Shown here: one piece after another, positions 1-14,715 of the stretch
Layout: each line of letters opens with the position of its first letter
Position numbering within the stretch: position 1 is the first letter of the stretch
Source: Bradyrhizobium oropedii
GTDB taxonomy: Bacteria; Pseudomonadota; Alphaproteobacteria; Rhizobiales; Xanthobacteraceae
Reading direction: 5' to 3'
Length of the DNA stretch: 14,715 nt
Assembly: GCF_020889685.1 (NCBI RefSeq)
Contig: NZ_JACMYO010000204.1
Location: forward strand, 1-14,715
Translations under genes and position numbers: made by a program
Notes under the pieces: generated by a model
Databases searched by the model: none
What the model saw: only the letters and a program-made list of their open reading frames with translations
What the model was told of the DNA's origin: nothing

Positions 1-1
1 C

Positions 2-565
2 GGTCGGCGTGAAGCATTCCATGGCCAGATTATCTCCTATGCCGACGACTTCGTCATTCTCAGCCGCGGCCACGCGGAAGACGCATTGACGTGGACGAAA
101 GCGGTGATGACCAAGCTTGGGTTGACACTCAACGAGACTAAAACCTCGGTGAAGAATGCCCGATTGGAAAGCTTTGACTTCCTTGGGTACACGCTCGGAC
201 CCCGCCGCTTCCGCAATGGCGGACGGTGGTATCTTGGCGCGGCTCCGTCCAAGAAAAGCGTGCTGCGGATCAAGAGGAAGGTCAGCGTACTGCTGACGCC
301 GGGCAACAAGGGCGCTTGGCCCGAAGTACAAGCACGACTGAACCGCCTTCTGCGCGGCTGGTCCGCTTACTTCAGCTATGGCTCTCTTGCTACGGCTCAT
401 CAGGCCGTTGATCGACACGTCTTCGACCGCGTGCTCGCCTTTCTGCGCAGACGACATAAGACGCCAGGACGTGGCGTCAGACGGTTCTCTGATCAGATCT
501 ATGGGAACCCTGGCGTACTTGTGCTGAACCGCGTGCGCAAAGTGTCGCCGACGTGCGCCTTGTGA
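2..565 (+). CDS. Group II intron reverse transcriptase/maturase, C-terminal part (5' end outside window); no HNH endonuclease domain visible
   Basis: Frame 2 is open from the window edge: GRREAFHGQIISYADDFVILSRGHAEDALTW... The RT active-site YADD is at 38-49. The maturase/X-domain pattern ...RLNRLLRGWSAYFSYGS... follows, with stop TGA at 563-565. The ORF track shows only the part from TTG 86. Confidence 0.9.
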   Translation, partial: GRREAFHGQIISYADDFVILSRGHAEDALTWTKAVMTKLGLTLNETKTSVKNARLESFDFLGYTLGPRRFRNGGRWYLGAAPSKKSVLRIKRKVSVLLTPGNKGAWPEVQARLNRLLRGWSAYFSYGSLATAHQAVDRHVFDRVLAFLRRRHKTPGRGVRRFSDQIYGNPGVLVLNRVRKVSPTCAL

Positions 566-579
566 CGAGACCTGTCGGA

Positions 580-676
580 AAGCCGGATGCGGGAAAACTG
601 CACGTCCGGTTTGATGAGCGGGGAGAGGAAACGGAACGCGCAACAAGCGCATCACCGCGCCTCTCCTCGACTCTAC
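580..676 (+). ncRNA. Group II intron catalytic domain V and branch-point domain VI
   Basis: Domain V: AAGCCGGATGCGGGAAAACTGCACGTCCGGTTT (580-612), with the AGC triad and complementary arms AGCCGG/CCGGTT. Domain VI: GAG-CG-GGGAGAGG (616-628) pairs with CCTCTCCT-CG-[A670]-CTC (660-673). The unpaired A is followed by CTCTAC, consistent with a branch adenosine 7 nt from the 3' splice site. Confidence 0.75.
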
Positions 677-801
677 TTCCTCCCTTGGTCTTGCGCTGTG
701 CGACCTTTTCCAGGGGCGCGCGTCAAGGCGCGACAGCCGCCGACATAACCGATGCCTCCTCGCCTGTTGCGATGGGCCGGCGTTCAGTAAGGAGCTGACA
801 G

Positions 802-2368
802 GTGCCCACCGGTGAAGCGCATCACTTGGGTCTGTTCCCAGCGACCAATGAAAGCACCCGCGCCGCTTTCGTCTACGCCATGGAGCGCGTCATCGATCAC
901 GTGATGGAAAGTTGGGACGAGCAATCTGCTCCGACCAGCGGCATCAAGTTTGACCAGCTCAAGCACCTGCTGGCGTCGCTCGAAGTGTGCCCGGCCGCCG
1001 GCCGCGGTCTCGATGCCGTCATGCTGGAGGTGCGCGAGCGGATCATGCCGCACTTCGTCTCAGTCTCGCATCCTCACTATGTCGCGCATATGCATTCCGC
1101 GCCGATATTGCCGTCGTTGGTTGCGGAGTTTCTGATCAGCGCGAGCAACCAGTCGCTGGATTCGTTCGACCAAGGCCCATCTGCAACGGCGTTGGAATGC
1201 CATGTAGTGCGCTGGTTGAGCGATCTCGTGGGGTTCGGCGCGGCCGGTGATGGCGTGTTCACGAGTGGAGGAACGCAGGCTAATCTCATGGGGCTGATGC
1301 TGGCTCGCGATCACGCCCAGGCGAGCGAACAGAATACTGTGAGGATATCCGGCTTGCCGGCCGAGGCACGGGGTGGCGCATTCTGTGCTCGGAGCTTGCG
1401 CACTTCTCAGTCGCCAGAAGTGCCCACATCCTGGATCTCGGCGAATCCGCAGTCGTGCCGATCGAGGCCGAGCGCGATGGCAAGTTGAGCGCGGACCGGC
1501 TCGACCGGGCGATACGGTCCGAGGCCAATCGAGGTCATCGTCCGATCGCGCTGGTGCTGACGGCCGGCACCACCGAATGCGGCTCAATCGATCGAATCGA
1601 GGAATGCGCGCGTGTGGCCCAAGGCGCGAACGTGTGGGTCCACCTGGATGCCGCCGCCGCCGGCGCGCTGCTGCTGAGCGATCACGCGCCACTTTTGCGC
1701 GGTGTCGAACTCACCGATTCCGTCTCAATCGACTTCCACAAAATGCTGTTCCAGTCGATCAGCTGCGGAGTCTTCATGGTTCGCAGGCGTGCGACGCTGC
1801 GACCGGTCGATTGCTTACCTCAGCCCGAGCGATAAGGCCGATAGTCTCGGACCGAATCTGGTCGGGAAGTCATTGCAAACGACGCGCCGGTTCGATGCCT
1901 TGAAGGTGTTCATGTCGCTGCGGGCGCTCGGCAGGGAACATGTGGGCGAACTGCTCGACCTGATGCTTGCCCAAGCGCAATTTGCCGCGAAGGAGATGAG
2001 AAATCGACGGAGCTCGAATCGCTGGTCCGGCCCGAAACCAATATCGTATTGTTCCGATGACGACCCGCTGGGCAGAGCCTGCCGGACGCGCTCATCAACG
2101 AGGTCAATCGGCAGCTTCCTGGCCGCTCTGGAATGATCGAATCGCGGTCATCGGGAAGACAGTTTACCGGGGTCTCGCAGCTCTGAAGCTGACCCTGCTG
2201 CATCCCGAATGTGCGAAAGAGCGGGTCATCCCAGTGCTGGCCGCGATCGAAGCCAGCGCGGGCAAGCTCGGCGCAGAGTTGTGGTCCGGCGCTGATCGTC
2301 TGGACGAAATGCTATTGGTCGGAGCAGGCAAGTGGCGCATCATGACGGTCTTCTTGTCGAGCGGGTAA
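802..2368 (+). pseudogene. Group II PLP-dependent amino-acid decarboxylase (diaminobutyrate/aspartate/glutamate decarboxylase-like), multiply disrupted
   Basis: RBS AAGGAG (789-794) precedes GTG 802. Frames below are coordinate mod 3. Frame 1: ...HPHYVAHMHSAPILPSLVAEFLISASNQSLDSFDQGPSATALECHVVRWL...GVFTSGGTQANLMGLMLARD. Frame 0: WRILCSELAHFSVARSAHILDLG...VHLDAAAAGA...SIDFHKMLFQ (PLP-Lys codon 1740-1742). Frame 1: YLSPSDKADSLGPNLVGKSLQTTRRFDALKVFMSLRALG. Frame 0: ELESLVRPETNIVLFR-TGA(2058-2060)-...LPDALINEVNRQL. Frame 2: IAVIGKTVYRGLAALKLTLLHPE. Frameshifts fall near 1355-1373, 1795-1812, 2000-2010 and 2115-2129, plus one in-frame stop. Confidence 0.85.
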
Positions 2369-2835
2369 ATTGGGGCGACCCCCGATATGAGCATGCACGC
2401 CGGGCGGAGCTCGAAATTTTCGGTATCCCCAACCGGTTTTCGACCCCGGACGACATAGCTGCGGGAGAAATGCTCACCTATCGTCAGTTCGAGCGAACAA
2501 GCGAATTCTACCTGGCCCGAACGGCGGAGAACGCTGGTGGAGATATCTTCGGCGTCGGGCGCCTCATCCGCCACGATCCGGCGCTGGGAGTTGCGAGCTT
2601 CAGCACGATGCGGGACGCGCGCAGCTACGCCCCACCGGGTGGAGGAGAGCCTACATGCCATTTGGCCGCTGAATGGGCGAGTTTTTTCGATCAAGTCGCC
2701 GCGCAAGATAGGCGCCACGAAGCGATATGGCGACGAGGACGTCTGGGACTTCACCTTCAATTCCGGCAGGGCCGAGGTCGAGTATGTCCATGTTCGAGAC
2801 TTCGAAGAAAAGATAACCTGTGCCGGGTGGGTTGA
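2332..2835 (+). CDS. Hypothetical protein, probably a truncated fragment
   Basis: ORF-track ORF with GTG start. The first ~105 aa look protein-like (...EMLTYRQFERTSEFYLARTAENAGGDIFGVGRLIRHDPALGVASFSTMRDA). The Arg/Gly/Cys-rich tail looks like out-of-frame read-through across the next ORF. No family recognised. Confidence 0.3.
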   Translation: MAHHDGLLVERVNWGDPRYEHARRAELEIFGIPNRFSTPDDIAAGEMLTYRQFERTSEFYLARTAENAGGDIFGVGRLIRHDPALGVASFSTMRDARSYAPPGGGEPTCHLAAEWASFFDQVAAQDRRHEAIWRRGRLGLHLQFRQGRGRVCPCSRLRRKDNLCRVG

Positions 2836-3169
2836 GGCGTTCTCTGAAACCGAAAAGCAGCGAGAACTGCGGCTCCGTGACGTGATCGTCTACGATTTCG
2901 AGGGAGCGGTTTTATTCGAAGCGCCGCGCGTGTACCCTGCACGGAAGATGGACAATATCGATGTAGAGTTCCCATACAGGCCAGGACAAGCAAATGACGA
3001 ACCCGCCACGTCCCCCGGTTGGACCCCTTACCGAAGGCTACGTCGTGAAAGGCGGCCACAACCCAGGCACGTCTCAAACTCAGACGCGTCCAGCAGCGCC
3101 AACGCCAATCCTCGCGCCGAGAACGCCGCCAGCCCCAAATGCGCCGCCGTCGGGAGGACGCAGCAATGA
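2537..3169 (+). CDS. Hypothetical protein with a small beta-rich core; start and end unresolved
   Basis: Protein-like core at about 2726-2977: YGDEDVWDFTFNSGRAEVEYVHVRDFEEKITCAGWVEAFSETEKQRELRLRDVIVYDFEGAVLFEAPRVYPARKMDNIDVEFPY. No in-frame ATG; GTG 2639 is a candidate start. The tail after ~2990 overlaps a better ORF in another frame and is probably not real. Confidence 0.35.
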   Translation: MEISSASGASSATIRRWELRASARCGTRAATPHRVEESLHAIWPLNGRVFSIKSPRKIGATKRYGDEDVWDFTFNSGRAEVEYVHVRDFEEKITCAGWVEAFSETEKQRELRLRDVIVYDFEGAVLFEAPRVYPARKMDNIDVEFPYRPGQANDEPATSPGWTPYRRLRRERRPQPRHVSNSDASSSANANPRAENAASPKCAAVGRTQQ

Positions 3170-3176
3170 CCAATAA
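2994..3176 (+). CDS. Small Pro-rich protein (60 aa), paralog of the next ORF
   Basis: AGGA (2983-2986), 7 nt spacer, ATG 2994. Sequence: MTNPPRPPVGPLTEGYVVKGGHNPGTSQTQTRPAAPTPILAPRTPPAPNAPPSGGRSNDQ. Shares MTN..(E/D)GY..G..TSQ..RP.AP.P with ORF 3166-3339. Confidence 0.45.
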   Translation: MTNPPRPPVGPLTEGYVVKGGHNPGTSQTQTRPAAPTPILAPRTPPAPNAPPSGGRSNDQ

Positions 3177-3339
3177 GCACAGGACAAATGACGGCTACGC
3201 GATGGACGGCAAAATCATGAGCCGTCAGGACTCGTACGAAATCAAGACCTCACAGGTTAAGCAGAGGCCGCCTGCGCCTGCACCGATGGTGAAGGCTCAA
3301 GCTCCAACACCGCCACCGCCCAAGCCTACGAAGGAGTAG
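3166..3339 (+). CDS. Small Pro-rich protein (57 aa), paralog of the preceding ORF
   Basis: Strong RBS GGGAGGA (3152-3158), 7 nt spacer, ATG 3166. Sequence: MTNKHRTNDGYAMDGKIMSRQDSYEIKTSQVKQRPPAPAPMVKAQAPTPPPPKPTKE. Overlaps the previous ORF by 11 nt. The ORF track lists a longer alternative-start version from 3139. Confidence 0.5.
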   Translation: MTNKHRTNDGYAMDGKIMSRQDSYEIKTSQVKQRPPAPAPMVKAQAPTPPPPKPTKE

Positions 3340-3492
3340 GGCTGTCGCCGCGAGTGACAATCCACTGGAGGACGCCAAGTAGCCAAGCAATTGCGCTAAG
3401 CTGCTTGGCCTACCTTCAAATTGTCCTCGTCGCTCATACGCACCGTCCAGGTTTTGGGCGCTCCCGACGACCTAGGCAGAGATACTGCGTAG

Positions 3493-3650
3493 CCAAGCGT
3501 CTTCCCAGCCGGTGAGGATACGCGCGCGGTTATCTCAGACGGAAACTCGAGCAGCGCGAATATCGACAACCGAGTAAGCCTGAAACGCATTCAGACCCTG
3601 GTGGGTCATGAAGACATCAAGACCACGCTCAACGTTTACGGCATCTCATC
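3493..3650 (+). pseudogene. Tyrosine recombinase (phage-type integrase) C-terminal remnant
   Basis: The frame opens after TAG 3490-3492 with no start codon: ...NIDNRVSLKRIQTLVGHEDIKTTLNVYG. This matches the conserved LGH..(I/L).TT..Y box around the catalytic Tyr (codon 3637-3639). Only the last ~50 codons of an integrase are present. Confidence 0.6.
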
Positions 3651-4036
3651 GAGCGCGTCGAGGCGCAAATGTCTGCGACCCATCCAACTATGAAACTTCA
3701 ATTGGAGACTCGCGCTTGTGAATGTGGCTGGCATTTACTTTCCGCAAACGGTTCGACCATTGAATCGCCGCAAAGTTGCACTACGTTTCTGGCTGAAATA
3801 CGTGCAGTGTGTTGGGGGCGACCAGAGCACGCAACGAACAGTCCCCGGCCTACTGGCCCAATGTATGAAGGCACGTACCGAAAGGGACCCTCGTACAGGA
3901 GATGGAGATACACCATGACGGTGTTGCTCACTCTCGAAGCCAGCCAGCCCTGCGGTAAGACCTACCGTCTTGGTTTCGGGTGCAATGTGCATCTGGCTTC
4001 GATGTTAGCCTTGCTCAGCAGGCTGTTCTAACAACG

Positions 4037-4065
4037 AGGGCGCCTCTCACGGGGTGCCCTTTTTG
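4037..4065. terminator. Rho-independent-type hairpin between convergent transcription units
   Basis: AGGGCGCC (4037-4044) pairs with GGGTGCCCT (4053-4060, one G-T wobble), with an 8-nt loop. It is followed by TTTTTG on the + strand and preceded by an A-run on the - strand. It sits about 5 nt downstream of a possible TAG (4072-4070) for the minus-strand module. Confidence 0.5.
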
Positions 4066-4069
4066 CTGC

Positions 4070-4843
4070 CTAGCTCGCCTCTTTGAACTCGATTTTGCCG
4101 TCAGCTCGTATTGCTCGCCGTCATCGAATGCCGACTTCATGGTTCGCTGTGTGCCTTTCGGTAAAGGCGCTCCCTTCCGCGTCGGCTTCGCCAGAAAATT
4201 CCTCTGCCAGTCGGTTTGGCGGTGCTGCCGCACCAAGCCGCCCGTGCTGGATCCCGGAAAACAGCCGGAACAGATCGGCGTCCGAGGAATCTTCGCGCAC
4301 CGGCTTCCGGCCCAGCTCGTCCCAGACCCCGCCGCGCGTGATGCCCGCGGAATTGTAGATGGCGCCGACGATCGCGAAATGCAGCTCGGAGTAGTCCTTG
4401 ATCCATTGCAGGAACAGTTTCACCACGTCATCACTCGCCAGCGTTCAGGCGGCCGCATTGCTCAGGAGGTTGCGGACAAGCACCCGCTTTTCATCACTTT
4501 CCGCTGCCCAGTCGCGGAAAGCCTTGCGCAGCAGCGATCGATATTCCTCGCTTCGTATCCGCTCCGCCGTCTTTTCGTCTTGCATGTCGATCCGGGCGGT
4601 CAGCTCCATAATCGTCTGCGTCTTTTCCTTCATCTTGGCGGCAAGCATGTCGGCGAGATGTTTCAGGAAATCATTGATCCGCGCTTGCTCCCGCTCCGAC
4701 CATGCACCCGCACCTGCCGCTAAAATCCCGCCGACGAACGGAATCGCACCGCCCGCGGTGTTCAGCATAAACCGGGCGGCACCACTGGCCTTACTGCCTT
4801 TCGGGAGTTCAGGCAGACCACCTGCGGCGTCATTGTCGGACAC
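4070..4843 (-). pseudogene. Uncharacterised protein B of a two-gene module (nonsense codon plus frameshift)
   Basis: GTG 4843 is preceded by GGGG. It reads MSDNDAAGGLPELPKG...GAIPFVGGILAAGAGAWSEREQARINDFLKHL...RNLLSNAAA, then an in-frame TGA (4447-4445). The same frame continues TLASDDVVKLFLQWIKDYSELHFAIVGAIYNSAGITRGGVWDELGRKPVREDSSDADLFRLFS. A frameshift near 4262-4275 leads to ...STGGLVRQHRQTDWQRNFLAKPTRKGAP...SAFDDGEQYELTAK. The 3' end is uncertain (4072-4070 TAG in a third frame, or 4017-4015). Confidence 0.55.
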
Positions 4844-4853
4844 GAACCGCCCC

Positions 4854-5425
4854 TTAGTTTGTCACGCGGGCGCTGCGACTCTTATCGCGCGCATCCTCGG
4901 CTTCGATTTGGGCCTTTCGCTGAGAAGCGGCCTGCTGGATCGCTTGCTCAAGCTGTGGCTTGTTACGCTCGTATTCTGCGCGCAACGTTTGCAGATTACC
5001 CTCGACCATCTGTTTGAAGTTCTGCAAGACGGCTTCGGTCCGGTCATCGTCCACCACGCTGATTGTCAGCGTATTGCGTTCAATCGTTGCTCGGCGATCC
5101 AACAGCGTCATGGACGAGGGCCCAATCCTCAGTGTCTCCGCCTTGCCCACGAAGGGGATGCTGACGTCGAGCCATGTCGTTTCATCATCCGATAGTCGCC
5201 CCAGCCATCCTGGCGCTGCCGTTCTTCTGTTCGCCTTTCGGCGGTCATCTGGCCTTGGAAACGGACCACCTCGATGTTGTATTTTTCTGAGATCGACTGG
5301 AGGACGCCTCCGAGCGACGGGTATTTGAACAGCTTCCCATCAAGTTTCTGCACGTCGGCCACAGCGGCCTGCATCTGAAGCTGCCAGACCTGATAGAACG
5401 ACTTCTGAAACAAAACCTCTTCCAT
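4854..5425 (-). pseudogene. Uncharacterised protein A of a two-gene module (one frameshift)
   Basis: GGAG, 6 nt spacer, ATG 5425. Reads MEEVLFQKSFYQVWQLQMQAAVADVQKLDGKLFKYPSLGGVLQSISEKYNIEVVRFQGQMTAERRTEERQRQDGWGDY. A frameshift near 5165-5185 leads to ...DDETTWLDVSIPFVGKAETLRIGPSSMTLLDRRATIERNTLTISVVDD...EAEDARDKSRSARVTN. Stop TAA at 4856-4854, 10 nt before the start of gene B. Confidence 0.55.
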
Positions 5426-5481
5426 CTTTTGCTCCGTAGCCTGGTGCCGGCGGATCCTCGACCACAACCGGTGATCCTACC

Positions 5482-6130
5482 TTGATCCAGATACTGCCAG
5501 ATTTTCTTACGGCAAGCTTCCGACGCCGACCGAGGTGGCCCCGGAGACCTTATCGGGGCCGGCGGACGACAAATCCGGCGAGGCGGCCGCCGGACAAGCG
5601 GGATCAGTTTGGCTCGGCCTGGACAAGACTTACAGAGCTTGGAAATCGGCATGCCGAAGTCGGCGACGTGCATGCATTATATATAGCGAGGGCCGCGCAG
5701 TCGCTAACGTGAGTCCGTACTTTCTCGGCAGTATCGTCCTGGTCAAGAATCGCTGGCGGCTCAAACCGACGTGGTCGACGGCCAGCAGCGCCTTACGACC
5801 ATAACGATCCTCCTTTGCGTCCTCCGGGACCTGGCGGATGCGAAAATCGGGCAGGCGATCCATAACTAAATCTGCCAGACCGGCGACCCGATCATGGAAA
5901 CTGCCGACGTCTTTCGCTTGACGCCCAGGGAGCGCGATGCTGAGTTCTTCCGCTCGACGATCCAGATCGCATCGCAAACGCGGAGCCTGCCCGATCCCCG
6001 GCTGCTTGTGAGGGTCACATCCTGGCTGAACCATTATAGATGCGTCGGTTTTACGTGCTTCGAACGAAAGCTGATGTCGTGGAAAGTCATACCCTGCGCA
6101 CAGTCGGTCTGGATCAAGCGCGTGGTTTGA
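5482..6130 (+). pseudogene. DUF262-family (GmrSD/ParB-nuclease-like N-terminal domain) gene remnant
   Basis: ...PYFLGSIVLVK (from 5715, frame 0) is followed after a frameshift by DVVDGQQRLTTITILLCVLRDLA (DGQQRLTT = 5777-5800, frame 2). There is an in-frame TAA at 5867-5869. The same frame then continues ...FRLTPRERDAEFFRSTIQ... to 6130. The N-terminal part (RPYRG..., around 5549-5563) is also frame-scrambled. No DUF1524/HNH-like C-terminal half was recognisable. Confidence 0.6.
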
Positions 6131-6400
6131 TAGCGGACGGCATGGATTGTCGCCGCAGCAATTGTTTCTTGGCGACGTCAGTTGAAAACCGCAGGCGGTC
6201 ATTCCGAAACAGAATTGCAATTTGTGCCGGCCGTCATGGATAGCGGGGGGCCGGCGCCCCCGCTTTCGATGCCAGCACACTCGCCAGCCGGCACGCAGCC
6301 GGCTATCCGCCGCAGATTTGGCCCCCGACGCCGCGACCGCCGGCCGACGTATCCGTGCCTTCACAGAAGGCGCCAATCACCACCGGCATGAAGGCCCAAC

Positions 6401-7216
6401 TCACTGCATCCTTTGCGTCGTGATTGTCGATAAATGCTGCCCGTTGGGATTCCTGTAACGATTGGCGAGGCTTTGTAACAATGAAGCCATCCGGTCCGGA
6501 TCTGATCGAACAGTAAATTCTCCATAGTTAGGGTCGAAAACCGTGGTCCTTCCATTCGAGGCCGACGTCGCGATCGTGTGTGCGCCGCCTTCGGCAAAAT
6601 ACAAGCTGAGCAAATGGTTCGATCCATCTTCGTTGATTTCGTTCACCATGCGCATGACGTTCGAAGACTTGCCGAATTCGAATCTCTTCACTTCTCCAGC
6701 CGGTTCCAAGCCTGCGTCCTCCAAAATGGTATTTTGTGCCTGAAGGTCGGCCTGAGAAGATCCTGCTCCCCTGCTCCGCAACTGATCCTTGAGATTTTGA
6801 TATTGCTGCTGCCGTTCAGCCGCTGAGGCGTGCGTTTGCGATCCGGGTGTGAGCGCACTCATTCGGGTTGATGGGCTGTTGTTAAGATTGCGGAACCACT
6901 CCGCAGTCAGCCCAACGCAGATGCCGTCCACATTCGCATCACGCAGGTCGCCCGTTCTGTATTCAAACAAGGAGGTGGCCGGACTCTCTGGAGAGGATGT
7001 ACTGGGGTCGGAGGCGCTAGAAGTTTGAACGTTTGCATCCGAGGTATGTGGCTTGCTGCAGCAGGCCCCCATCTTGTCAGGCAACTCCCCCGGTTGTGAG
7101 CTCCACTGAGGCGCGAGACCTGCAAGTGTTTCCGTAAAGCCGCCGCTATCCACCGACTGACTCGGTTCGTCAGCTTGTCTAGTGCATGTGGATGAGCCAC
7201 TGATTCGATCATACAT
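6401..7216 (-). CDS. nopT: Type III secreted effector, YopT/AvrPphB-family (peptidase C58) cysteine protease, NopT-like
   Basis: 271 aa, intact, with AAGGTG RBS upstream of ATG 7216. Catalytic-triad motifs: DGIC100VGLTAEW, EGGAH213TIA, VFD228PNYGEF. The N-terminal PDK-M49-G50-A-C52-C53-SKP resembles the autoprocessing site that exposes a Gly/Cys acylation motif in this family. GC is visibly lower than the flanks. Confidence 0.85.
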   Translation of the reverse strand: MYDRISGSSTCTRQADEPSQSVDSGGFTETLAGLAPQWSSQPGELPDKMGACCSKPHTSDANVQTSSASDPSTSSPESPATSLFEYRTGDLRDANVDGICVGLTAEWFRNLNNSPSTRMSALTPGSQTHASAAERQQQYQNLKDQLRSRGAGSSQADLQAQNTILEDAGLEPAGEVKRFEFGKSSNVMRMVNEINEDGSNHLLSLYFAEGGAHTIATSASNGRTTVFDPNYGEFTVRSDPDRMASLLQSLANRYRNPNGQHLSTITTQRMQ

Positions 7217-7284
7217 GACGATTCACCTTTCTGTGCTGCGCTAGTCTCTACGCATCAATTCGGGCTGCTTAGTCCTGCTGCGAG

Positions 7285-7316
7285 GATACCCAGACAAGCT
7301 GATGGCGAGCTGACGG
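7285..7316 (-). promoter_or_regulatory. Candidate tts box (TtsI-dependent promoter element) upstream of nopT
   Basis: Minus strand reads ccGTCAGCTCGCCATCAGCTTGTCTGGGTATCC. Against the tts-box core as I recall it (GTCAGCTTnTCGAAAGCT), 12 of 17 specified positions match, including GTCAGCT and AGCT. It lies ~95 nt upstream of the nopT ATG. Confidence 0.45.
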
Positions 7317-7359
7317 GCAGCTGTTGTCCAGCTTAGAAAGCGTTCCTTTGTCGGACTTC

Positions 7360-8005
<646 letters not shown>

Positions 8006-8326
8006 CTTCCATCGGAGGTCGCGAGCGCCTCATGATGATTTCCAGATCGGCGCCGCAGTGAGTGCGGACAAACCGCCACCGGCGGATTGGCTGTCAATCG
8101 GCGTCGGACGGGGTCTCGGCGTCGACGCGAAGTTCGCTGGTCGACAGGGCGACGACGGCCGTGATCTTCCTGGCGTCGAACAAGACGGGCGCCCCAGTGG
8201 TCGGCGTCAATTGGACGAGAGCACCCCTGCGAAGGCGGGAAGGGTTAGCAGCTATGTTGCGCGAATAATCTTTTCATTGCGTGAACTTCCAAATCATTAC
8301 CTTGCCGGTTGCCGGCGAAAAACGGC

Positions 8327-8536
8327 CTACTTCAAAGCGGTCTCGATCAAATTGGCCAGCCTGGCTCCCGCCAGGGCGGCCCGCGCTCGGGCCACGTTCT
8401 TGGCGTCGGTCTCGTACTCGCGCGTCAGGAGGGGCGGGTTCTCTTGAGCCCAGACGGCGGGATCGACGATCTGCGCCTGCGCTGGGCTGACGCCGACGCC
8501 CGACAATCCGTCCTTGTCGTCCGCGTCGAAGATCAC
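8327..8536 (-). CDS. Hypothetical protein or C-terminal gene fragment
   Basis: GTG start only. The frame is open upstream (..WPWDWDAAFGGYASPYR) to a TAG with no ATG. Sequence: VIFDADDKDGLSGVGVSPAQAQIVDPAVWAQENPPLLTREYETDAKNVARARAALAGARLANLIETALK. It looks protein-like, but no family was recognised. Confidence 0.3.
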   Translation of the reverse strand: MIFDADDKDGLSGVGVSPAQAQIVDPAVWAQENPPLLTREYETDAKNVARARAALAGARLANLIETALK

Positions 8537-8692
8537 GCGATATGGCGAGGCGTAACCGCCAAAGGCGGCATCCCAGTCCCACGGCCAGCGCCTTCGATGG
8601 CGTCGGACGCAAGGCTCCGCTAACTGATGCGGCCTTGCTCCATTTACTCGCTGGCGCTAACGCTAGCCCTTCTGTCGGCGTAGGGGGGCACG

Positions 8693-8938
8693 GTGAGCAA
8701 CGCTCGCGAGTTTATCGATTTCTGGATCGAGAACAGCGTTCACGCTGTCGAGCAGTATCGGACGGTTGGCGCGTCGCAGGACGTGGCCGAACTCACCCGG
8801 CGCCTTGTCGAGGCTGCCGAAGGGCAGGGTATTTCGGAAGCCGAGTTGCGGGCTCAGATCGGCGACATTTCCGACTACATCGAAGGCCGGCTCAAGGCTG
8901 CGAATAGGGCTGAGAACGAGCGGCGTAAGCCTGCCTAA
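8693..8938 (+). CDS. DUF768-family small protein (common in rhizobial accessory regions)
   Basis: GTG 8693 is preceded by GGGGGG. 81 aa: MSNAREFIDFWIENSVHAVEQYRTVGASQDVAELTRRLVEAAEGQGISEAELRAQIGDISDYIEGRLKAANRAENERRKPA. The pattern matches my recollection of DUF768 proteins. Confidence 0.6.
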   Translation: MSNAREFIDFWIENSVHAVEQYRTVGASQDVAELTRRLVEAAEGQGISEAELRAQIGDISDYIEGRLKAANRAENERRKPA

Positions 8939-9077
8939 GCAACCTACAACTTGGCGGGGAAAGCCTTTGCTATCCAGAGTGGCCCTCCGGAAACAGGCCG
9001 CGCTCGCTACTCAGCCACTTTGTAAACGTCGCAGGGTTCGAGCTTAAGTTCTTCGAACGTTCGCTGCTGCTCAACGG

Positions 9078-9745
9078 TCAGCGCGACGTCCAACACCAAC
9101 CGCTACCATCTAAGTGGATGGAACATACTCTGGTGTGCTCTGGAACTACCTGACTTGGTAGCTGCCCATGCCACGTAGCCGGTGTTAAGTAGGCTTGAGC
9201 GAGGGGGCCGATCGAACCCCGTGGATGCTGTGCAGAGCCTCCAGTTCGGTCCGAGGTCGTCCGCTTGTCCTTCACGCTCTCTAAGGCGGCCGGGGCAGCT
9301 TGGCAGATGGAATGGATATGCAACAGCGGAGCCCGCTCCCGAATGGTGATCGATCGGCCGGCCATTTTCGGAACACCGCTTACGAGCTCAATAAGAGCAG
9401 TCCCTATTTCGATGCAGCTCACGCGGCCTGCCTCATGGTCGAGGGACGTTCCACGACAGGCGGGCCTTTGTTTTGGACCCCGGTCCACTGTTCGACTTCG
9501 AAGGCATCTCAGAATCGCTAAGGCGAACGTCTTCGGCGCGTCCGCACGGTAGGATGAATATTTCTGGAGAGCGCACTAATGCCCGACTGGGATATGCACT
9601 CATTGTCGGCCAGCGCACCCAGAAAAATGCTTCAACCTCGGTACGACGGCTTGGCAATTTCGTCCACCAGGATGGTGTCGCCGCCCGAACCCGCGGGCTT
9701 CATCAGGCGCCGGCCCGGATCGCCGCGCAGCATCGAAGCGCTGGT
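9078..9745 (-). pseudogene. Probable sigma54-dependent transcriptional activator (bEBP, NtrC/NifA family) relic: 5'-truncated and frame-scrambled
   Basis: Minus-strand fragments appear in the correct order but in different frames. (1) GRRLMKPAGSGGDTILVDEIAKPS, Walker-B-like GG(T)L.(L)DEI, about 9710-9650. (2) PEIFILPCGRAEDVRL, compare LPPLRER.EDI, 9555-9526. (3) ARLSWNVPRP, compare W(PG)NVR, about 9453-9445. (4) SCIEIGTALIELVSG, compare NCIERA. (5) ALESVKDK...RTGGS, compare the Fis-type HTH region, about 9275-9235. There is no Walker A or sensor domain, and several internal deletions are implied. Confidence 0.45.
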
Positions 9746-9831
9746 CCCTAACGAGCTATCCGTCTTGGAATCCAAAACCAATCAAACAAAACCTCCGTAT
9801 CGAGGTACTGGGACAAAATTGAGGGGAAATA

Positions 9832-10608
9832 ATGTCTGACGCTGCGTTAGATCGCACACCGAATGTCACGGGAACCAAGACCCTTAGCATAAACTACGGA
9901 TTGTTCGCGTTCGCGATCGTTGCGCTGACGATCCTCTACATCTGCGCGCGGCTGTATCAGCAGGCTTTTGGTTTCTCCATGGGGCTCGATGCAAGTTCAC
10001 CAGAATTTGGCGAATACTGGATGACGCTCTTCAGGATCGAATTACCGGTCTTGTATGGCGCAGGCGCGCTCTGCTGGACCTATCTCTTCCTGACGCGTGA
10101 CAAGAACATTGAGGCCATCACGCCCGAGGTCGAGTTGCGCAGTTACTTTTATCTGACCATGTGGCTCGTCGTGTACAGTTTCTGCATCTTCTGGACAGGC
10201 AGCTTCTTCGCCGATGGAGATGGAGTCTGGCATCAGACGACCCTCAGAGACACGCCGTTTACTCCCAGTCACATAATTCTGTTCTATGCGACCATTCCAA
10301 TCTATCTCTTCTTTGGCGTAGGCAGCTTTGTTTACGCAATGACCCGCATTCCGGCTTTCTGCAGGGGGATCTCGCTCATGCATGTCTTCGCCGTAGTGGG
10401 GCCTTTCCTCATTTTGCCGAATCTCGGTTTCAACGAATGGGGGCATGCTTACTGGCTCACCGAGGAAATCTTCTCCCATCCGCTGCATTGGGGTTTCGTG
10501 GTTCTTGGATGGTGCGCACTCGCGCTGGCGGGCGTCCTGATGCAGATCGTCGGACGATTTAGAGAACTCGTTCCAATTGTATTCAAGCAGGAAGCAGCGA
10601 GCGCGTGA
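9832..10608 (+). CDS. xmoC: Copper membrane monooxygenase subunit C (PmoC/AmoC family)
   Basis: GAGGGGA RBS (9821-9827), ATG 9832, 258 aa. Family motifs: FGFSMGLDASSPEFGEYWM; GDGVWHQTTLRDTPFTPSH (D130/H134/H147); NEWGHAYWLTEEIFSHPLHWGFV (N201/H205/H219). Multiple hydrophobic helices. Confidence 0.95.
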   Translation: MSDAALDRTPNVTGTKTLSINYGLFAFAIVALTILYICARLYQQAFGFSMGLDASSPEFGEYWMTLFRIELPVLYGAGALCWTYLFLTRDKNIEAITPEVELRSYFYLTMWLVVYSFCIFWTGSFFADGDGVWHQTTLRDTPFTPSHIILFYATIPIYLFFGVGSFVYAMTRIPAFCRGISLMHVFAVVGPFLILPNLGFNEWGHAYWLTEEIFSHPLHWGFVVLGWCALALAGVLMQIVGRFRELVPIVFKQEAASA

Positions 10609-10738
10609 CGAACGCACGTCTGCTACGCGTTGGAAAAATCGCGGTGCGGGAAGCCGTGCGACAACAATACAAGCCATCAGCTATTCCCGGACAGCGATCG
10701 CAGTTCGGCAAGAGCAGGTAAACCCTGGGGAGAGAGGA

Positions 10739-11587
10739 GTGACCTCAATTACCGACATCGATGCAGTGGCGATTCCGAAAAGGAAAGCTGGCCCCAAAGG
10801 TGAGACGGTCATTTCTGTCTCCGGTCTAACCCCCGGGGCAGCAAGATACTCCCGCATGTTCGACTTCTTGGTCGTGGCGGCGGTGGTGCCCCTCTTTGCG
10901 GGAGCATTCCATCTGCACGTGATGCTCACGGTCGGTGATTGGGACATGTATGTCGACTGGAAAGACCGGCAATATTGGCCCCTTGTCACGCCCATCTCCA
11001 TGATCATGTTTCCTGCTGCTCTGCAGGCGATCTTCTGGGTCAACTTCCGTTTGCCCATCGGCGCGACGGTGGGCGCAACAGTATTGCTGATTACCACGTG
11101 GCTCGGACGTTACGCGAATTGGTGGATATGGACAGGCTTCCCGTTCACGGAAGGTGTGCCCTCACAGGTGATCGCGGGCGCATTGTTGATGGATATGGCG
11201 TTAATCGTCCTTCGCAATAGCCTGTTCACATCCATCTTCGCGGGCTTTGCGTTCGGATTCGTATTCTGGCCATCGAATTATTCCGCTTTGGCTCCGTTCT
11301 ATCTCCCGGTCGAGCACCAAGGAATGGTCGCATCGTTGGCCGACATGATCGGTTACACATTTCCGCGTTCGAACATGCCTGAGTATCTGCGTATCATTGA
11401 GCGCGGTACGCTCCGGACTTTCGGTAGCTCGGTCAGTTGGGTGTCGGCGGCGTTCGCGGGCTTCATCTGCATATTCATGCACCAACTTTGGTGGCAGCTT
11501 GGGCGTTTTGCGTCCCAGACGACGTTCCTCAAGAACGGCGATGTCGTCAAATCCTTCATGGGTATGAAAAGCAGGCCAGCGTCCTAA
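10739..11587 (+). CDS. xmoA: Copper membrane monooxygenase subunit A (PmoA/AmoA family)
   Basis: Motifs: HLHVMLTVGDWDMYVDWKDRQYWPLVTPI..., LPIGATV, MPEYLRIIERGTLRTFG. The start is uncertain. GTG 10739 has GGGGAG 6 nt upstream; GTG 10766 and ATG 10856 are in-frame alternatives. The ORF-track start at 10577 overlaps xmoC and is unlikely. Stop TAA at 11585-11587. Confidence 0.9.
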   Translation: MTSITDIDAVAIPKRKAGPKGETVISVSGLTPGAARYSRMFDFLVVAAVVPLFAGAFHLHVMLTVGDWDMYVDWKDRQYWPLVTPISMIMFPAALQAIFWVNFRLPIGATVGATVLLITTWLGRYANWWIWTGFPFTEGVPSQVIAGALLMDMALIVLRNSLFTSIFAGFAFGFVFWPSNYSALAPFYLPVEHQGMVASLADMIGYTFPRSNMPEYLRIIERGTLRTFGSSVSWVSAAFAGFICIFMHQLWWQLGRFASQTTFLKNGDVVKSFMGMKSRPAS

Positions 11588-11612
11588 GCGAATAAGCACA
11601 GGGAACACGGGT

Positions 11613-12860
11613 ATGTTGGCGAAACTTATAAAACTCGCTGCAGGTTGGGTTGTCGCCTTCACTGTCGGAGTGTCTAGCGCAGCCGCTCATGGCGAACGTG
11701 CTCAGGAGCCATACTTGAGGACCAGGACGGTACAATTCTACGATGTCCACTTTTCCAAAACTGACGTGAAGGTGAACGAGCGATTCGAGCTAACGGGAAA
11801 ATTCAGGCTGATGGAGGACTGGCCGGACGCAGTTACTCCGCCGGATATTGTTTTCGTATCGAGCGTATCGCCGGGGCCGACAATTGCCAGGGTGGAAACA
11901 TACCTCAACGGTGAGCCAGCGAGGCAGTCTTTCGCAAAGCTGGAACTTGGCCGCGACTACGATTTTCGAATGGTTCTTGAGGGGCGCACATCGGGCAGCA
12001 GCCACATCCATCCCTCGATCTCGATCAAGGGATCTGGCCCTCTGGTGGGGCCGGGGCAGTGGATAAACATCTCGGGTGATGCGCATTCGTTCGCGTTTCC
12101 GATCAAGACTATGACTGGTCTGCAGATCGACGACTTGCAGACGTTCGGGCTGACTAACGCGATCGGATGGCATGTGGCCTGGCTGGCCGTGGCTGCGGCA
12201 TGGTTGTTGTTCTGGTTGGTTCGTCCACTGTTTTTGCCTCGATGGCTTGTTCTGCAGAAGGGCAGGGAGGATTTGTTGGTTTCGTTGAGAGACACCGGGG
12301 TCGGGATCATAGTGGCGGCGATCGTTCTCGTCATGGTCTTCGGCGGCTATGTCCGAGCCAATCAGGAATATCCATATAATGTGCCCCTCCAGAGCGGGTT
12401 GAATAAGGTCGCGCCGCGCCCGGCAAGCCCTGCTGACGCAGAGGTCAAGGTCATATCGGCCACCTATGACGTGCCGGGCCGTTCGATGAGATTAGCGACC
12501 AGGATAACGAACAAAGGATCAGAACCTCTTTCAATCGGCGAGCTTACGACCGCAAACATCCGCTTTCTCAATCAGGGGCTCCCGGCAGCAATAGCCAATG
12601 TAGATCCGACCTACCCAAGGGATCTCGTTGCACGCACAGGGCTTGAGCTCAGTAGTGATACGCCGATAAATCCCGGTGAGACGAGAGAGGTGCTCGTCGA
12701 GGCAACGGACGCCGTGTGGGAATTGGAGCGCCTTGTCAGCTTCCTCACCGACGTCGACTCCAAGTTCGGCGGGTTGTTGCTCCTCTACACTCCGAATGGG
12801 AAACGCGTCATAGCGGAGATGGGCGGACCAATCGTGCCCGTATTCACCGAACTTAAGTAA
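11613..12860 (+). CDS. xmoB: Copper membrane monooxygenase subunit B (PmoB/AmoB family)
   Basis: 415 aa. Signal peptide ...VGVSSAAA|H26GERAQEPYLRTRTVQFYD. H131-I-H133 sits in GRTSGSSHIHPSISIKGSGPLVGPGQWI. Two central TM helices (WHVAWLAVAAAWLLFWLV, VGIIVAAIVLVMVFGGY) are followed by a C-terminal cupredoxin-like half. Confidence 0.95.
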   Translation: MLAKLIKLAAGWVVAFTVGVSSAAAHGERAQEPYLRTRTVQFYDVHFSKTDVKVNERFELTGKFRLMEDWPDAVTPPDIVFVSSVSPGPTIARVETYLNGEPARQSFAKLELGRDYDFRMVLEGRTSGSSHIHPSISIKGSGPLVGPGQWINISGDAHSFAFPIKTMTGLQIDDLQTFGLTNAIGWHVAWLAVAAAWLLFWLVRPLFLPRWLVLQKGREDLLVSLRDTGVGIIVAAIVLVMVFGGYVRANQEYPYNVPLQSGLNKVAPRPASPADAEVKVISATYDVPGRSMRLATRITNKGSEPLSIGELTTANIRFLNQGLPAAIANVDPTYPRDLVARTGLELSSDTPINPGETREVLVEATDAVWELERLVSFLTDVDSKFGGLLLLYTPNGKRVIAEMGGPIVPVFTELK

Positions 12861-12874
12861 GCTTGGGTGCGCGA

Positions 12875-13504
12875 ATGTTGCGACGAGGTCAGTGGTGGAC
12901 GACCGCGAGCGGAAGAGGGGCGTTCCCGGCCGTCCTTGTGATGGCGCTCGGCGCTCTCTTTGTTCTTGCCGCCGTCCGCGAAGGTCATGCGCACGGAGCT
13001 GTGTCCATGGAGGCTGACCAATGCAAGCTGAAGGTGGACAGCTACTTCATGCATTTTACTGGCTATCAGCCGCAGAGCTCGAGAGCCGAATTTTGTGAGG
13101 ACATACCGGAGGTCGGGCGAACGATCATTGTTCTCGATTTCGTCGACGAGTCCCTGCGAGACATCCCGGTAAGCGTGAACCTGGCTAGAGATGACGGCGT
13201 ACAAAGGATGGAAATGACGAACACACCATCCAGCATACTCTACATTCCACCAAGGAAGTATCCGAACGGAACGATCAAGATCGACGTCAATTTCGAGAAA
13301 GCCGGCAGATACGTCGGCATGGTGGCGATCGAGCATCGCGGGCAAAGCGTGGCAAACTTTCCATTCGACGTGGGGCGAGGCTGGAGTCTGATACGTCTTC
13401 TGGCGTGGTGCCTGGTCATAGTGTCAGGCGCCGTGGGAACGTTTCTGTGGGCACGGCGACGATACTCGATCGGGCGGGAGCTATCCTGGGCGAACCACAG
13501 ATAA
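12875..13504 (+). CDS. Secreted, C-terminally membrane-anchored protein in the pmoD/amoD position (possible PmoD-like copper protein)
   Basis: ATG 12875; the ORF track uses TTG 12863. N-terminal signal-like segment FPAVLVMALGALFVLAAVREGHA|HGAV. Also present: C50-x8-M59-H60, FC74EDIP, and a C-terminal helix WSLIRLLAWCLVIVSGAVGTFLWARRRY. It is tightly packed between xmoB and copC. Confidence 0.7.
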   Translation: MLRRGQWWTTASGRGAFPAVLVMALGALFVLAAVREGHAHGAVSMEADQCKLKVDSYFMHFTGYQPQSSRAEFCEDIPEVGRTIIVLDFVDESLRDIPVSVNLARDDGVQRMEMTNTPSSILYIPPRKYPNGTIKIDVNFEKAGRYVGMVAIEHRGQSVANFPFDVGRGWSLIRLLAWCLVIVSGAVGTFLWARRRYSIGRELSWANHR

Positions 13505-13519
13505 AGGAGAGTTGTTTCG

Positions 13520-13879
13520 ATGAGAAGGTTCGTGCTCGTCATGATGGCCGTGCTGATCGGGATGCCAGGCGCGGTACTCGCTCACGCGCATCTCATTCGA
13601 TCGACGCCGCAAGATGGCAGCGAAATTTCAGCTCCGATCGACCCGATGGTCCTGTACTTCACTGAAGCGCTCGAACAGGGGCTCATCAATGTCGCCCTTT
13701 CTCGCGATGATAAAGCCGTATCAGGGCTTTCGCAGCCCGTGCTAAGCGGCAATGGGCGAATCGTGAATGTTTCATTGCCTCATCTATCTGCCGGGCTCTA
13801 TACCGTCAGTTGGAGCGTTGTCTCGATTGACGGGCATCGCACGGAAGGCAAGTTTAAATTTCTCTACCGAGGACCTTGA
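13520..13879 (+). CDS. copC: Periplasmic copper-binding protein CopC
   Basis: AAGGAG (13504-13509), ATG 13520, 119 aa. Signal peptide ...GMPGAVLA|HAHLIRSTP gives an N-terminal His after cleavage. ...GLYTVSWSVVSIDGHRTEGKFKF shows the D-x-H pattern typical of the CopC Cu(II) site. No Met-rich Cu(I) loop is evident. Confidence 0.9.
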   Translation: MRRFVLVMMAVLIGMPGAVLAHAHLIRSTPQDGSEISAPIDPMVLYFTEALEQGLINVALSRDDKAVSGLSQPVLSGNGRIVNVSLPHLSAGLYTVSWSVVSIDGHRTEGKFKFLYRGP

Positions 13880-14715
13880 TGGAAACGGTCCTCTCACTTG
13901 CGCGAGGGACTGCTTTCGCCTCCACGGCAGCTTTCGGCGGATTCTGCTGGGGTTTGGCACTGTGGCGCGAGGGTCTTGAAAGCGGCACTCGGTCGCGCTT
14001 CACGACGATAGCTTCCATCGCTGCGTCCGTAGCACTGGTCCTCAGTCTCTTGTATTTGACGGTTCGGATCGGCGCCGTCCTTGGCAAGCCGGTCTTGGCG
14101 GTCAGCTCCAGCGACGTGCTCTTCATCATTTTGGACACGCGGTTCGGGAGAGCTCAGGTCGCGGCGCTTGGGTTTGTGCTAGTCGGAGTTGCGAGCTTGC
14201 GACTTCTTCACAAGCCAGGTCTTGCCGCGAGTTTCAGCGGACTATCGCTGCTGGTGGGATTGTCCTCGAGCCACTCGGCGGCTGGCGGCACTATAGCAGG
14301 CTTCGCGATCAATATGATCCATGTTGCTGCGGCGGCGCTCTGGTTCGGAGGACTGTCAACCCTCGTTGTCGCGATGGCTCGACAGGCAGCGGAGAGGCCC
14401 GAAAGTAAATCCAGGCTCCTGAGCGGCTTTTCGACGGTCGCGCTGCCGCTCATGTTGCTCGTGGTCGCAACCGGAGTAGCTCTAGCAATCGAAAACGTGG
14501 GGACCTGGCCGGGTTTGGTGGCGACCGAATATGGCTGGCTCCTGACGGGAAAGTTCGCCTGCATCGGCCCGGTCCTGATCTGCGCTGCGTTTATCAGACA
14601 AAGGCTATTGCCGTTGCTAAAGACCGAAGGGGCAACTCAGCCACTCGGGATGGTCTTGAAGATCGAGCTAGCCTTCGCATTTCTGGTCACGTTACTTGCT
14701 GGCTGCCTGTCTCAG
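13879..14715 (+). CDS. copD: Copper resistance/import membrane protein CopD (partial; continues past window end)
   Basis: ATG 13879 overlaps the copC TGA (13877-13879). 279 codons are open to the window edge. The product is polytopic and hydrophobic, with ...SSSHSAAGGTIAGFAINMIHVAAAALWFGGL..., typical of CopD. It is not in the ORF track because no stop is reached. Confidence 0.85.
   Translation, partial: METVLSLARGTAFASTAAFGGFCWGLALWREGLESGTRSRFTTIASIAASVALVLSLLYLTVRIGAVLGKPVLAVSSSDVLFIILDTRFGRAQVAALGFVLVGVASLRLLHKPGLAASFSGLSLLVGLSSSHSAAGGTIAGFAINMIHVAAAALWFGGLSTLVVAMARQAAERPESKSRLLSGFSTVALPLMLLVVATGVALAIENVGTWPGLVATEYGWLLTGKFACIGPVLICAAFIRQRLLPLLKTEGATQPLGMVLKIELAFAFLVTLLAGCLSQ

Follow-up and report, generated by a model that had tools for sequence, protein, structure and literature searches.

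A PmoD/AmoD-family protein of the AmoD subgroup encoded directly downstream of xmoB in Bradyrhizobium oropedii and its probable role in copper handling

The contig NZ_JACMYO010000204.1 of Bradyrhizobium oropedii (assembly GCF_020889685.1) was analyzed over positions 1 to 14,715 of the forward strand, and this whole stretch of 14,715 nucleotides is referred to as the window. The window contains an xmoCAB cluster that encodes a copper membrane monooxygenase (CuMMO), followed by a small gene of the amoD/pmoD type, copC, and copD. The product of the amoD-type gene (12875 to 13504, plus strand, 209 amino acids) is almost certainly an ordinary member of the PmoD/AmoD family, and the motif around its first cysteine places it in the Cx8MHxnC (AmoD) subgroup. 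It is very probably a membrane-tethered periplasmic copper protein that, together with CopC and CopD, would supply or maintain copper for the Bradyrhizobium CuMMO. The roles of a CuA electron carrier and of a purely structural subunit are less likely. The 2018 PmoD paper (Fisher et al., 2018; PMC6189053) and its data files already cover the family, its subgroup motif, the architecture of the operon, and an ortholog in Bradyrhizobium sp. ERR11, and identification of the gene by itself adds little.

The amoD-type open reading frame (ORF) is a genuine gene and not a chance frame because 28 close homologs were found, 816 family representatives were retrieved at E ≤ 1e-3 (homolog profile search, 50%-clustered library), relatives were encoded at 493 genomic loci, and the ratio of nonsynonymous to synonymous substitution rates (dN/dS) was about 0.20 over the soluble domain in a comparison with B. 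manausense. Orthologs in Bradyrhizobium were 93–96% identical. The xmoB stop codon ends at 12860, and the amoD-type gene starts 2 nt (alternative TTG, 12863) or 14 nt (ATG, 12875) downstream; its TAA stop codon ends at 13504, leaving a gap of 15 nt to the ATG of copC at 13520. A 186-amino-acid antisense ORF (12785 to 13345) was taken as a by-product of high G+C content because the plus-strand frame has homologs and is under purifying selection; no homolog search was made for the antisense ORF.

Numbered from the ATG, the translation reads ...AFPAVLVMALGALFVLAAVREGHA/HGAVSMEADQC50KLKVDSYFM59H60F...EFC74EDIP, in which the slash marks the predicted signal peptidase cleavage site. Residues 1–39 (12875 to 12991) form a predicted signal peptide with R3, R4, and R14 in the n-region, an h-region at residues 16–34 with Kyte-Doolittle values above 2, and the c-region REGHA, and its G-H-A/H junction fits the -3/-1 rule. 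The R3-R4 pair was also considered as a twin-arginine translocation signal and was rejected, as the S/T-R-R-x-F-L-K context is absent and the pair is not conserved in homologs. The predicted periplasmic cupredoxin-like domain extends from His40 to approximately Gly168 (12992 to 13378) and bears H40-G41, D48, C50, M59-H60, and C74. It is followed by a predicted transmembrane (TM) helix (approximately residues 171–192), a cytoplasmic RRR tail, and the TAA stop codon (13385 to 13504); hydropathy indicated a hydrophobic segment at 171–192 and then A-RRR, and the AlphaFold2 model contained a helix at 172–208. The length of 209 amino acids lies inside the family range of 150–250. A preliminary description of this DNA had placed the frame 2–14 nt after xmoB and 15 nt before copC, and had reported a signal-like N-terminus, a soluble part of approximately 130 residues, a C-terminal helix followed by RRR, the C50-x8-M59-H60 cluster, and C74 within FCEDIP; coordinates, translation, and hydropathy agreed with all of these points.

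Sequence and fold comparisons both led to PmoD. A phmmer search of PDB sequences matched PmoD of Methylocystis sp. Rockwell (6CPD) with E = 8e-19 over residues 49–167 at approximately 30% identity, and C50, H60, and C74 aligned with C41, H51, and C65 of 6CPD. An AlphaFold2 model built with 27 homologs had a mean predicted local distance difference test score (pLDDT) of 81 and an all-beta domain, with pLDDT values of 88–97 in nine of the 12 ten-residue blocks over residues 51–170 (the others had 81, 56, and 86). Foldseek superposed this model on 6CPD_B with E = 2e-12, a target-normalized TM-score of 0.87, and a root-mean-square deviation of 2.0 Å, and the next matches were weaker by eight orders of magnitude. 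No profile match to CopC (PF04234), DUF1775 (YcnI), or the classical cupredoxin families of Pfam was obtained. The protein has the features that characterize the PmoD/AmoD family, including a signal peptide, a cupredoxin-like domain, two Cys, a C-terminal TM helix, and a CuMMO neighborhood. Family membership can be regarded as settled because the sequence and the fold both match 6CPD, canonical amoD genes were recovered, and an ortholog has been published as PmoD.

A published classification of the family relies on the sequence surrounding the first Cys (Fisher et al., 2018; PMC6189053). The Cx7MxHxnC class comprises the in-operon PmoD of alphaproteobacterial methanotrophs and AmoE, the Cx8MHxnC class corresponds to the amoD annotation in ammonia-oxidizing bacteria (AOB), and the remaining classes are Cx9H, Cx8M, and bare CxnC. 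The motif in the window, C50-KLKVDSYF-M59-H60, has the Cx8MH form. In nitrifier loci with several paralogs, identity to the query was 37–47% for copies at the amoD position, 27–35% for copies at the amoE position, and 32–40% for the third comammox copy. The supplementary data of the same study list Ga0061098_101195 of Bradyrhizobium sp. ERR11, which is the 93% identical ortholog of the window protein (L003), as Cx8MHxnC with flanking triplets QCK, YFM, and MHF and the operon order “cabdcd” (Fisher et al., 2018).

The window protein shares with AmoD (orf5) of AOB and comammox Nitrospira the C-x8-M-H...C motif, the topology of signal peptide, beta-domain, and TM helix, and an AxA/HG junction. 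The place of the gene in the cluster is also alike, downstream of the gene for the B subunit and followed by copC and copD where these are present. On the other hand, betaproteobacterial AOB (beta-AOB) carry an amoE copy between amoB and amoD, whereas the window has a single copy and no amoE paralog; the host is a Bradyrhizobium, and the gene forms an in-frame fusion with copC in close relatives of the window. PmoD of Methylocystis sp. Rockwell, whose subgroup includes AmoE (orf4), has in common with the window protein the cupredoxin-like fold, both Cys, and a His at the position of His60 (His51), but differs in that it possesses the CuA Met and lacks an N-terminal His-Gly.

The conservation of individual residues was assessed in a hidden Markov model (HMM) alignment of 176 relatives, in which the denominators vary by column. 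In the column of His40, 153 of 161 relatives had His, and in that of Gly41, 159 of 162 had Gly. The residue at -1 was Ala, Gly, or Ser in 161/161, that at -3 was mostly Ala or Val, and that at -2 was variable and often bulky. Cleavage by signal peptidase I just before His40, as judged from hydropathy, the -3/-1 rule, and the family-wide junction statistics, is therefore strongly supported, and a mature N-terminus of His-Gly is predicted because the classic signal peptidase I pattern is conserved directly before the His. A mature protein beginning with His40-Gly after GHA had been proposed in the preliminary description and is well supported by this conserved junction, as is the likeness that it had drawn to the neighboring XmoB (...SSAAA/HGE) and CopC (...VLA/HAH). 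The A/HG-x8-C arrangement was also found in AmoD (VHA/HGGLSLADDIC) and AmoE (AGA/HGKVSLEEDSC) of beta-AOB, and the comammox copies that occupy the amoE and amoD positions have it too. Furthermore, the pattern [AG]HG[GAKSN] occurred in at least 445 of the 860 PmoD sequences of the published dataset, whose accompanying table devotes a column, “H1,” to the N-terminal His residue (Fisher et al., 2018). By these comparisons, the N-terminal His is a family-wide trait shared by AmoD, AmoE, and the majority of PmoD homologs, and not a peculiarity of one lineage.

H40, G41, D48, C50, H60, and C74 were invariant in the alignment of 27 sequences. Among the wider set of relatives, both Cys were essentially invariant (C50 in 169/169 and C74 in 175/176), even in subgroups without the Met and the His. 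The conservation of the proposed Cys/Met/His cluster was thus confirmed for C50, H60, and C74, but not for M59, a position at which 102 of 176 relatives had Met and most others had Ala. Asp48 was Asp in 141 of 168 relatives, and proteins of the Cx8M-only type mostly lacked both Asp48 and His60. Across the subgroups, Asp48 and His60 were gained and lost together, and the N-terminal His was kept in nearly all cases.

Histidine-brace copper sites are known from the Cu(II) site of CopC, the CuB site of PmoB, PCuAC of methanotrophs, and lytic polysaccharide monooxygenases. The amoD-type protein resembles these proteins in its predicted mature N-terminal His after a signal peptidase site and in a second conserved His and an Asp nearby, and an N-terminal His of this kind is also predicted for the products of both flanking genes; however, it has no sequence or profile relation to CopC or DUF1775, and its fold differs. 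A possible, if on balance doubtful, refinement of the copper-protein reading is that the protein carries a mononuclear brace-type site, similar to the Cu(II) site of CopC, formed by the free amine and imidazole of mature His40 with His60 and/or Asp48, and that Cys50 and Cys74 form a disulfide under the oxidizing conditions of the periplasm. The conserved AxA/HG junction and its recurrence in beta-AOB, comammox, and published PmoD sequences are in favor of such a site. Moreover, of the 161 sequences whose N-terminus was intact, 129 had both Asp48 and His60, 23 had neither, and nine had one alone; this hints that the two residues belong to one (metal) site, although phylogeny confounds the association. 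In 6CPD, a disulfide joins the two invariant Cys (Fisher et al., 2018), which makes it conceivable that a His40/Asp48/His60 site is combined with a Cys50-Cys74 disulfide. However, the model had pLDDT values below 50 at residues 37–40, conservation of His-Gly could mean another ligand role or a processing requirement, and in the CuA-forming homologs Cys41 is a copper ligand and not half of a disulfide.

Such a site, if it exists, could have escaped notice in published work. The Methylocystis PmoD that was crystallized has no H1 (mature region, ...EGGAGPEAMSMGNMC), and the published constructs all start with a vector-derived Ser-Met (Fisher et al., 2018). An extension of two residues would mask a brace, and the existing biochemistry would therefore be unable to see a ligand at the amino terminus. 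A literature search found no paper that links PmoD or AmoD to the histidine brace, which is weak evidence as most subscription papers were outside its scope, and within that search the only uses of “N-terminal histidine” alongside PmoD were unrelated to the PmoD N-terminus. The more general proposal that AmoD-type and most other PmoD-family proteins might carry a mononuclear His40/Asp48/His60 copper site, of histidine-brace or CopC-like type, on a free N-terminal His, distinct from CuA, is more tentative still.

Whatever the geometry of the site, the family context points to copper. Several PmoD subgroups bind copper in vitro, and PmoD genes are confined to genomes that carry a CuMMO (PMC6189053). 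Deletion of pmoD in the methanotroph Methylosinus leads to a copper-dependent growth defect. PmoD-family proteins are recurrently fused to CopC, YtkA-like, or multicopper oxidase domains, and since these fused domains are all copper-related, they support a copper-handling role of the family. The link to copper is further supported by three close relatives in which loss of the intervening stop codon yields an in-frame AmoD-CopC ORF. Among the best 80 of the 493 loci, which include Nitrosospira, Nitrosomonas, Nitrosovibrio, and comammox Nitrospira, the amoD-type gene directly followed xmoB in 30, and the full CAB-D-copC-copD order was present in 12. Copper binding by the window protein, an extrapolation from the other PmoD subgroups, is likely, and a copper-handling role for XmoCAB is somewhat better than an even proposition.

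In the proposed mechanism, the precursor would leave the cytoplasm through the Sec pathway, and signal peptidase I would then remove residues 1–39, as suggested by the sequence and by comparison within the family. The mature protein would fold in the periplasm into a cupredoxin-like beta-sandwich, as modeled and matched to 6CPD, and would be held by a single C-terminal helix in the inner membrane with RRR as a stop-transfer tail. Copper may then be bound near the mature N-terminus by His40, Asp48, Cys50, His60, and Cys74, with or without Met59, to judge from residue conservation and from the other PmoD subgroups. Finally, the protein would assist the neighboring copper monooxygenase alongside CopC and CopD, and its task would most likely be to acquire or load copper and not to carry electrons through CuA, because of the gene order, the domain fusions, and the missing CuA Met.

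Several observations weigh against this assignment as a periplasmic copper protein of the PmoD/AmoD family. As far as the text of PMC6189053 shows, the proteins tested in vitro include no Cx8MHxnC protein. A Pfam scan of the protein at E ≤ 1 gave a spurious holin only (E = 0.69), and NCBIfam gave no match at E ≤ 1. Family membership rests on pairwise, profile, and fold evidence and not on a curated HMM; the lack of Pfam and NCBIfam matches is explained by a missing family model and not by missing homology, and a family HMM is part of Supplementary Data 4 of the published study (Fisher et al., 2018). Orthologs of the B. manausense and B. sacchari type are annotated by NCBI as “hypothetical protein” in calls of 165, 187, 188, or 209 amino acids, and the ERR11 operon has been placed among CuMMOs “of unknown function” (Khadka et al., 2018). 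In addition, no bound PmoD or AmoD has been seen in cryo-EM structures of bacterial ammonia monooxygenase (AMO) and particulate methane monooxygenase (pMMO), and the extra TM densities that a comammox AMO preprint gives to AmoD/AmoE-like proteins are assigned tentatively.

The last two observations also bear on an alternative in which the main function of the protein is that of a structural or assembly subunit, with its TM helix docked on XmoC or XmoB and copper of secondary importance. The gene is tightly linked to the cluster directly after xmoB, its C-terminal helix is conserved, and the tentative helices of the comammox preprint would fit a subunit of this kind. However, a structural role is less likely than copper supply because PmoD/AmoD has not been found on AMO or pMMO by cryo-EM, and the extra helix in Nitrosomonas AMO has been assigned to unrelated small proteins. 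Evolution was also faster in the TM helix and tail than in the soluble domain (dN/dS of 0.33 vs. 0.20), and the strongest conservation lay in the N-terminal ligand cluster and not in the helix. This alternative is thus considered unlikely.

Even less probable is a CuA-type electron-transfer partner that, like Methylocystis PmoD, forms a dimer around a Cu2S2 core and passes electrons to the monooxygenase. The fold and the family are common to the window protein and CuA-forming PmoD, and the CuA ligands Cys41 and His51 have Cys50 and His60 as their counterparts in the alignment. On the other hand, the third ligand is absent: the CuA-forming Cx7MxHxnC subgroup has Met at C+8 and His at C+10, whereas the window protein has Phe58 at C+8, Met at C+9, and His at C+10. 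The dimeric CuA site (Cys41, Met49, and His51) was formed solely by Cx7MxHxnC proteins, representatives of the Cx9H, Cx8M, and CxnC classes bound copper without CuA features, and replacement of Met49 by Ala abolished CuA formation (PMC6189053). By the published class rule, CuA formation by the amoD-type protein is not expected because the Met at C+8 is replaced by Phe58, which also makes a CuA role less likely than one in copper supply. The binding of copper through Cys/Met/His ligands, which the preliminary description had ascribed to the family, accordingly holds for the CuA class, but not in that form for the window protein. Finally, a non-homologous analog, that is, a new family in the same operon slot, can practically be dismissed: although the protein has no Pfam or NCBIfam match, it is homologous to 6CPD in sequence and fold, canonical amoD of Nitrosospira, Nitrosomonas, and Nitrospira was recovered at 37–47% identity, and an ortholog is part of the published PmoD dataset. 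The preliminary description had hesitated between a divergent PmoD, such an analog, and an undescribed accessory subunit; PmoD was the right choice, but the protein is not especially divergent, and through ERR11 it was already represented in the 2018 dataset.

For the copper-handling protein favored here, the annotation of orthologs has been obscured by gene calling. The ERR11 ortholog was recorded as a “CopC” of 290 amino acids because the IMG call starts at Met45 and the stop codon has been lost, so that the frame runs into copC. At the junction with copC (13499 to 13522), the stop codon of the amoD-type gene is TAA in the window and TGA in B. manausense, whereas CAA or CAG occupies this position in Bradyrhizobium sp. 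Arg816, cir1, and ERR11, which have one open frame for AmoD, TM helix, and CopC; the 331-amino-acid protein P0001 is such a fused call. The Shine-Dalgarno sequence before copC was stronger in the window (AAGGAG) than in Arg816, cir1, and ERR11 (AAGGCG). The calls of 165 amino acids and the IMG call for ERR11 start at Met45 and lose the signal peptide and the conserved His-Gly. Independent AmoD-CopC fusions were present in P0019 and P0031 (295 amino acids), and near-identical N-terminal sequences were found in Burkholderiaceae and Acetobacteraceae metagenome-assembled genomes (L009 and L015). Six other homologs contained an extra C-terminal domain (P0100, P0102, P0139, P0143, P0171, and P0132), which was YtkA-like (PF13115) in five and a multicopper oxidase domain in one.

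The neighbors of the amoD-type gene, all on the plus strand, were identified by Pfam matches to AmoC, AMO, Monooxygenase_B, CopC, and CopD with E-values of 1e-16 to 1e-133. The first, xmoC (CuMMO subunit C; 9832 to 10608), matched AmoC with E = 1.2e-90 and NCBIfam AmoC_BACT with 361 bits (cut-off 319), and xmoA (subunit A; 10739 to 11587) matched AMO with E = 6e-80 and AmoA_BACT with 286.3 bits, just below the cut-off of 290. The gene xmoB (subunit B; 11613 to 12860), with predicted signal cleavage at AAA/HGE, matched Monooxygenase_B with E = 3.8e-133 and AmoB_BACT with 541 bits (cut-off 336). Downstream, copC (13520 to 13879) lies in the same frame as the amoD-type gene (CopC, E = 7.7e-18; predicted cleavage VLA/HAH) and is followed by copD (13879 to 14715), which is truncated by the window end (CopD, E = 2.4e-16; NCBIfam copper_CopD, E = 2.6e-25). 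The mechanical ORF of xmoA begins at TTG 10577, within xmoC; its true start is probably GTG 10739, 7 bases after a Shine-Dalgarno-like GGGGAG, which would leave a gap of approximately 130 nt between xmoC and xmoA. Co-transcription of the cluster genes is likely because the gaps are 2–15 nt and no credible terminator lies between the genes; a terminator and promoter scan of 9000–14715 gave matches at chance level only. XmoC and XmoB exceed the NCBIfam equivalog cut-offs for bacterial AmoC and AmoB, while XmoA just misses its own, and automated pipelines would therefore name the Bradyrhizobium enzyme an ammonia monooxygenase.

The window is Bradyrhizobium DNA. Over the cluster and a portion of its upstream flank, nucleotide identity was approximately 96% with strains Arg816 and cir1 of Bradyrhizobium sp. 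and 95% with B. shewense ERR11; identity with B. manausense and B. sacchari was 85%. The region that precedes the xmo cluster resembles a genomic island strewn with gene remnants, and its features at 86–565, 802–2136, and 6401–7216 comprise a fragment of a group II intron maturase (GIIM), two fragments of a pyridoxal phosphate-dependent decarboxylase (likely a pseudogene), and a minus-strand YopT-type Peptidase_C58 gene, which is typical of type III effectors. The G+C content was 0.54–0.58 over the xmo cluster and 0.60–0.65 upstream. This setting suggests a horizontally acquired or symbiosis-island context. Other xmoCAB clusters occur in B. diazoefficiens, B. manausense SZCCT0118, B. niftali, B. 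frederickii, B. cajani, and B. uaiense (L007, L011, L059, L068, L071, L072, and L077), with subunits 46–57% identical to those of the window. In each of these clusters, xmoB is immediately followed by a separate gene of the AmoD type, and copC is missing from most of them. The divergence of the clusters indicates that several distinct CuMMO lineages circulate in the genus.

In the absence of a Pfam or NCBIfam model for the family, orthologs of this protein are labeled “hypothetical protein” or miscalled CopC. The AmoD subgroup occurs in all bacterial ammonia oxidizers. The N-terminal His found throughout the family, together with its conserved Asp and His partners, provides a cheap testable hypothesis for the copper site in vivo. 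If it were true, XmoB, AmoD, and CopC would be encoded by three adjacent genes for N-terminal-His copper proteins.

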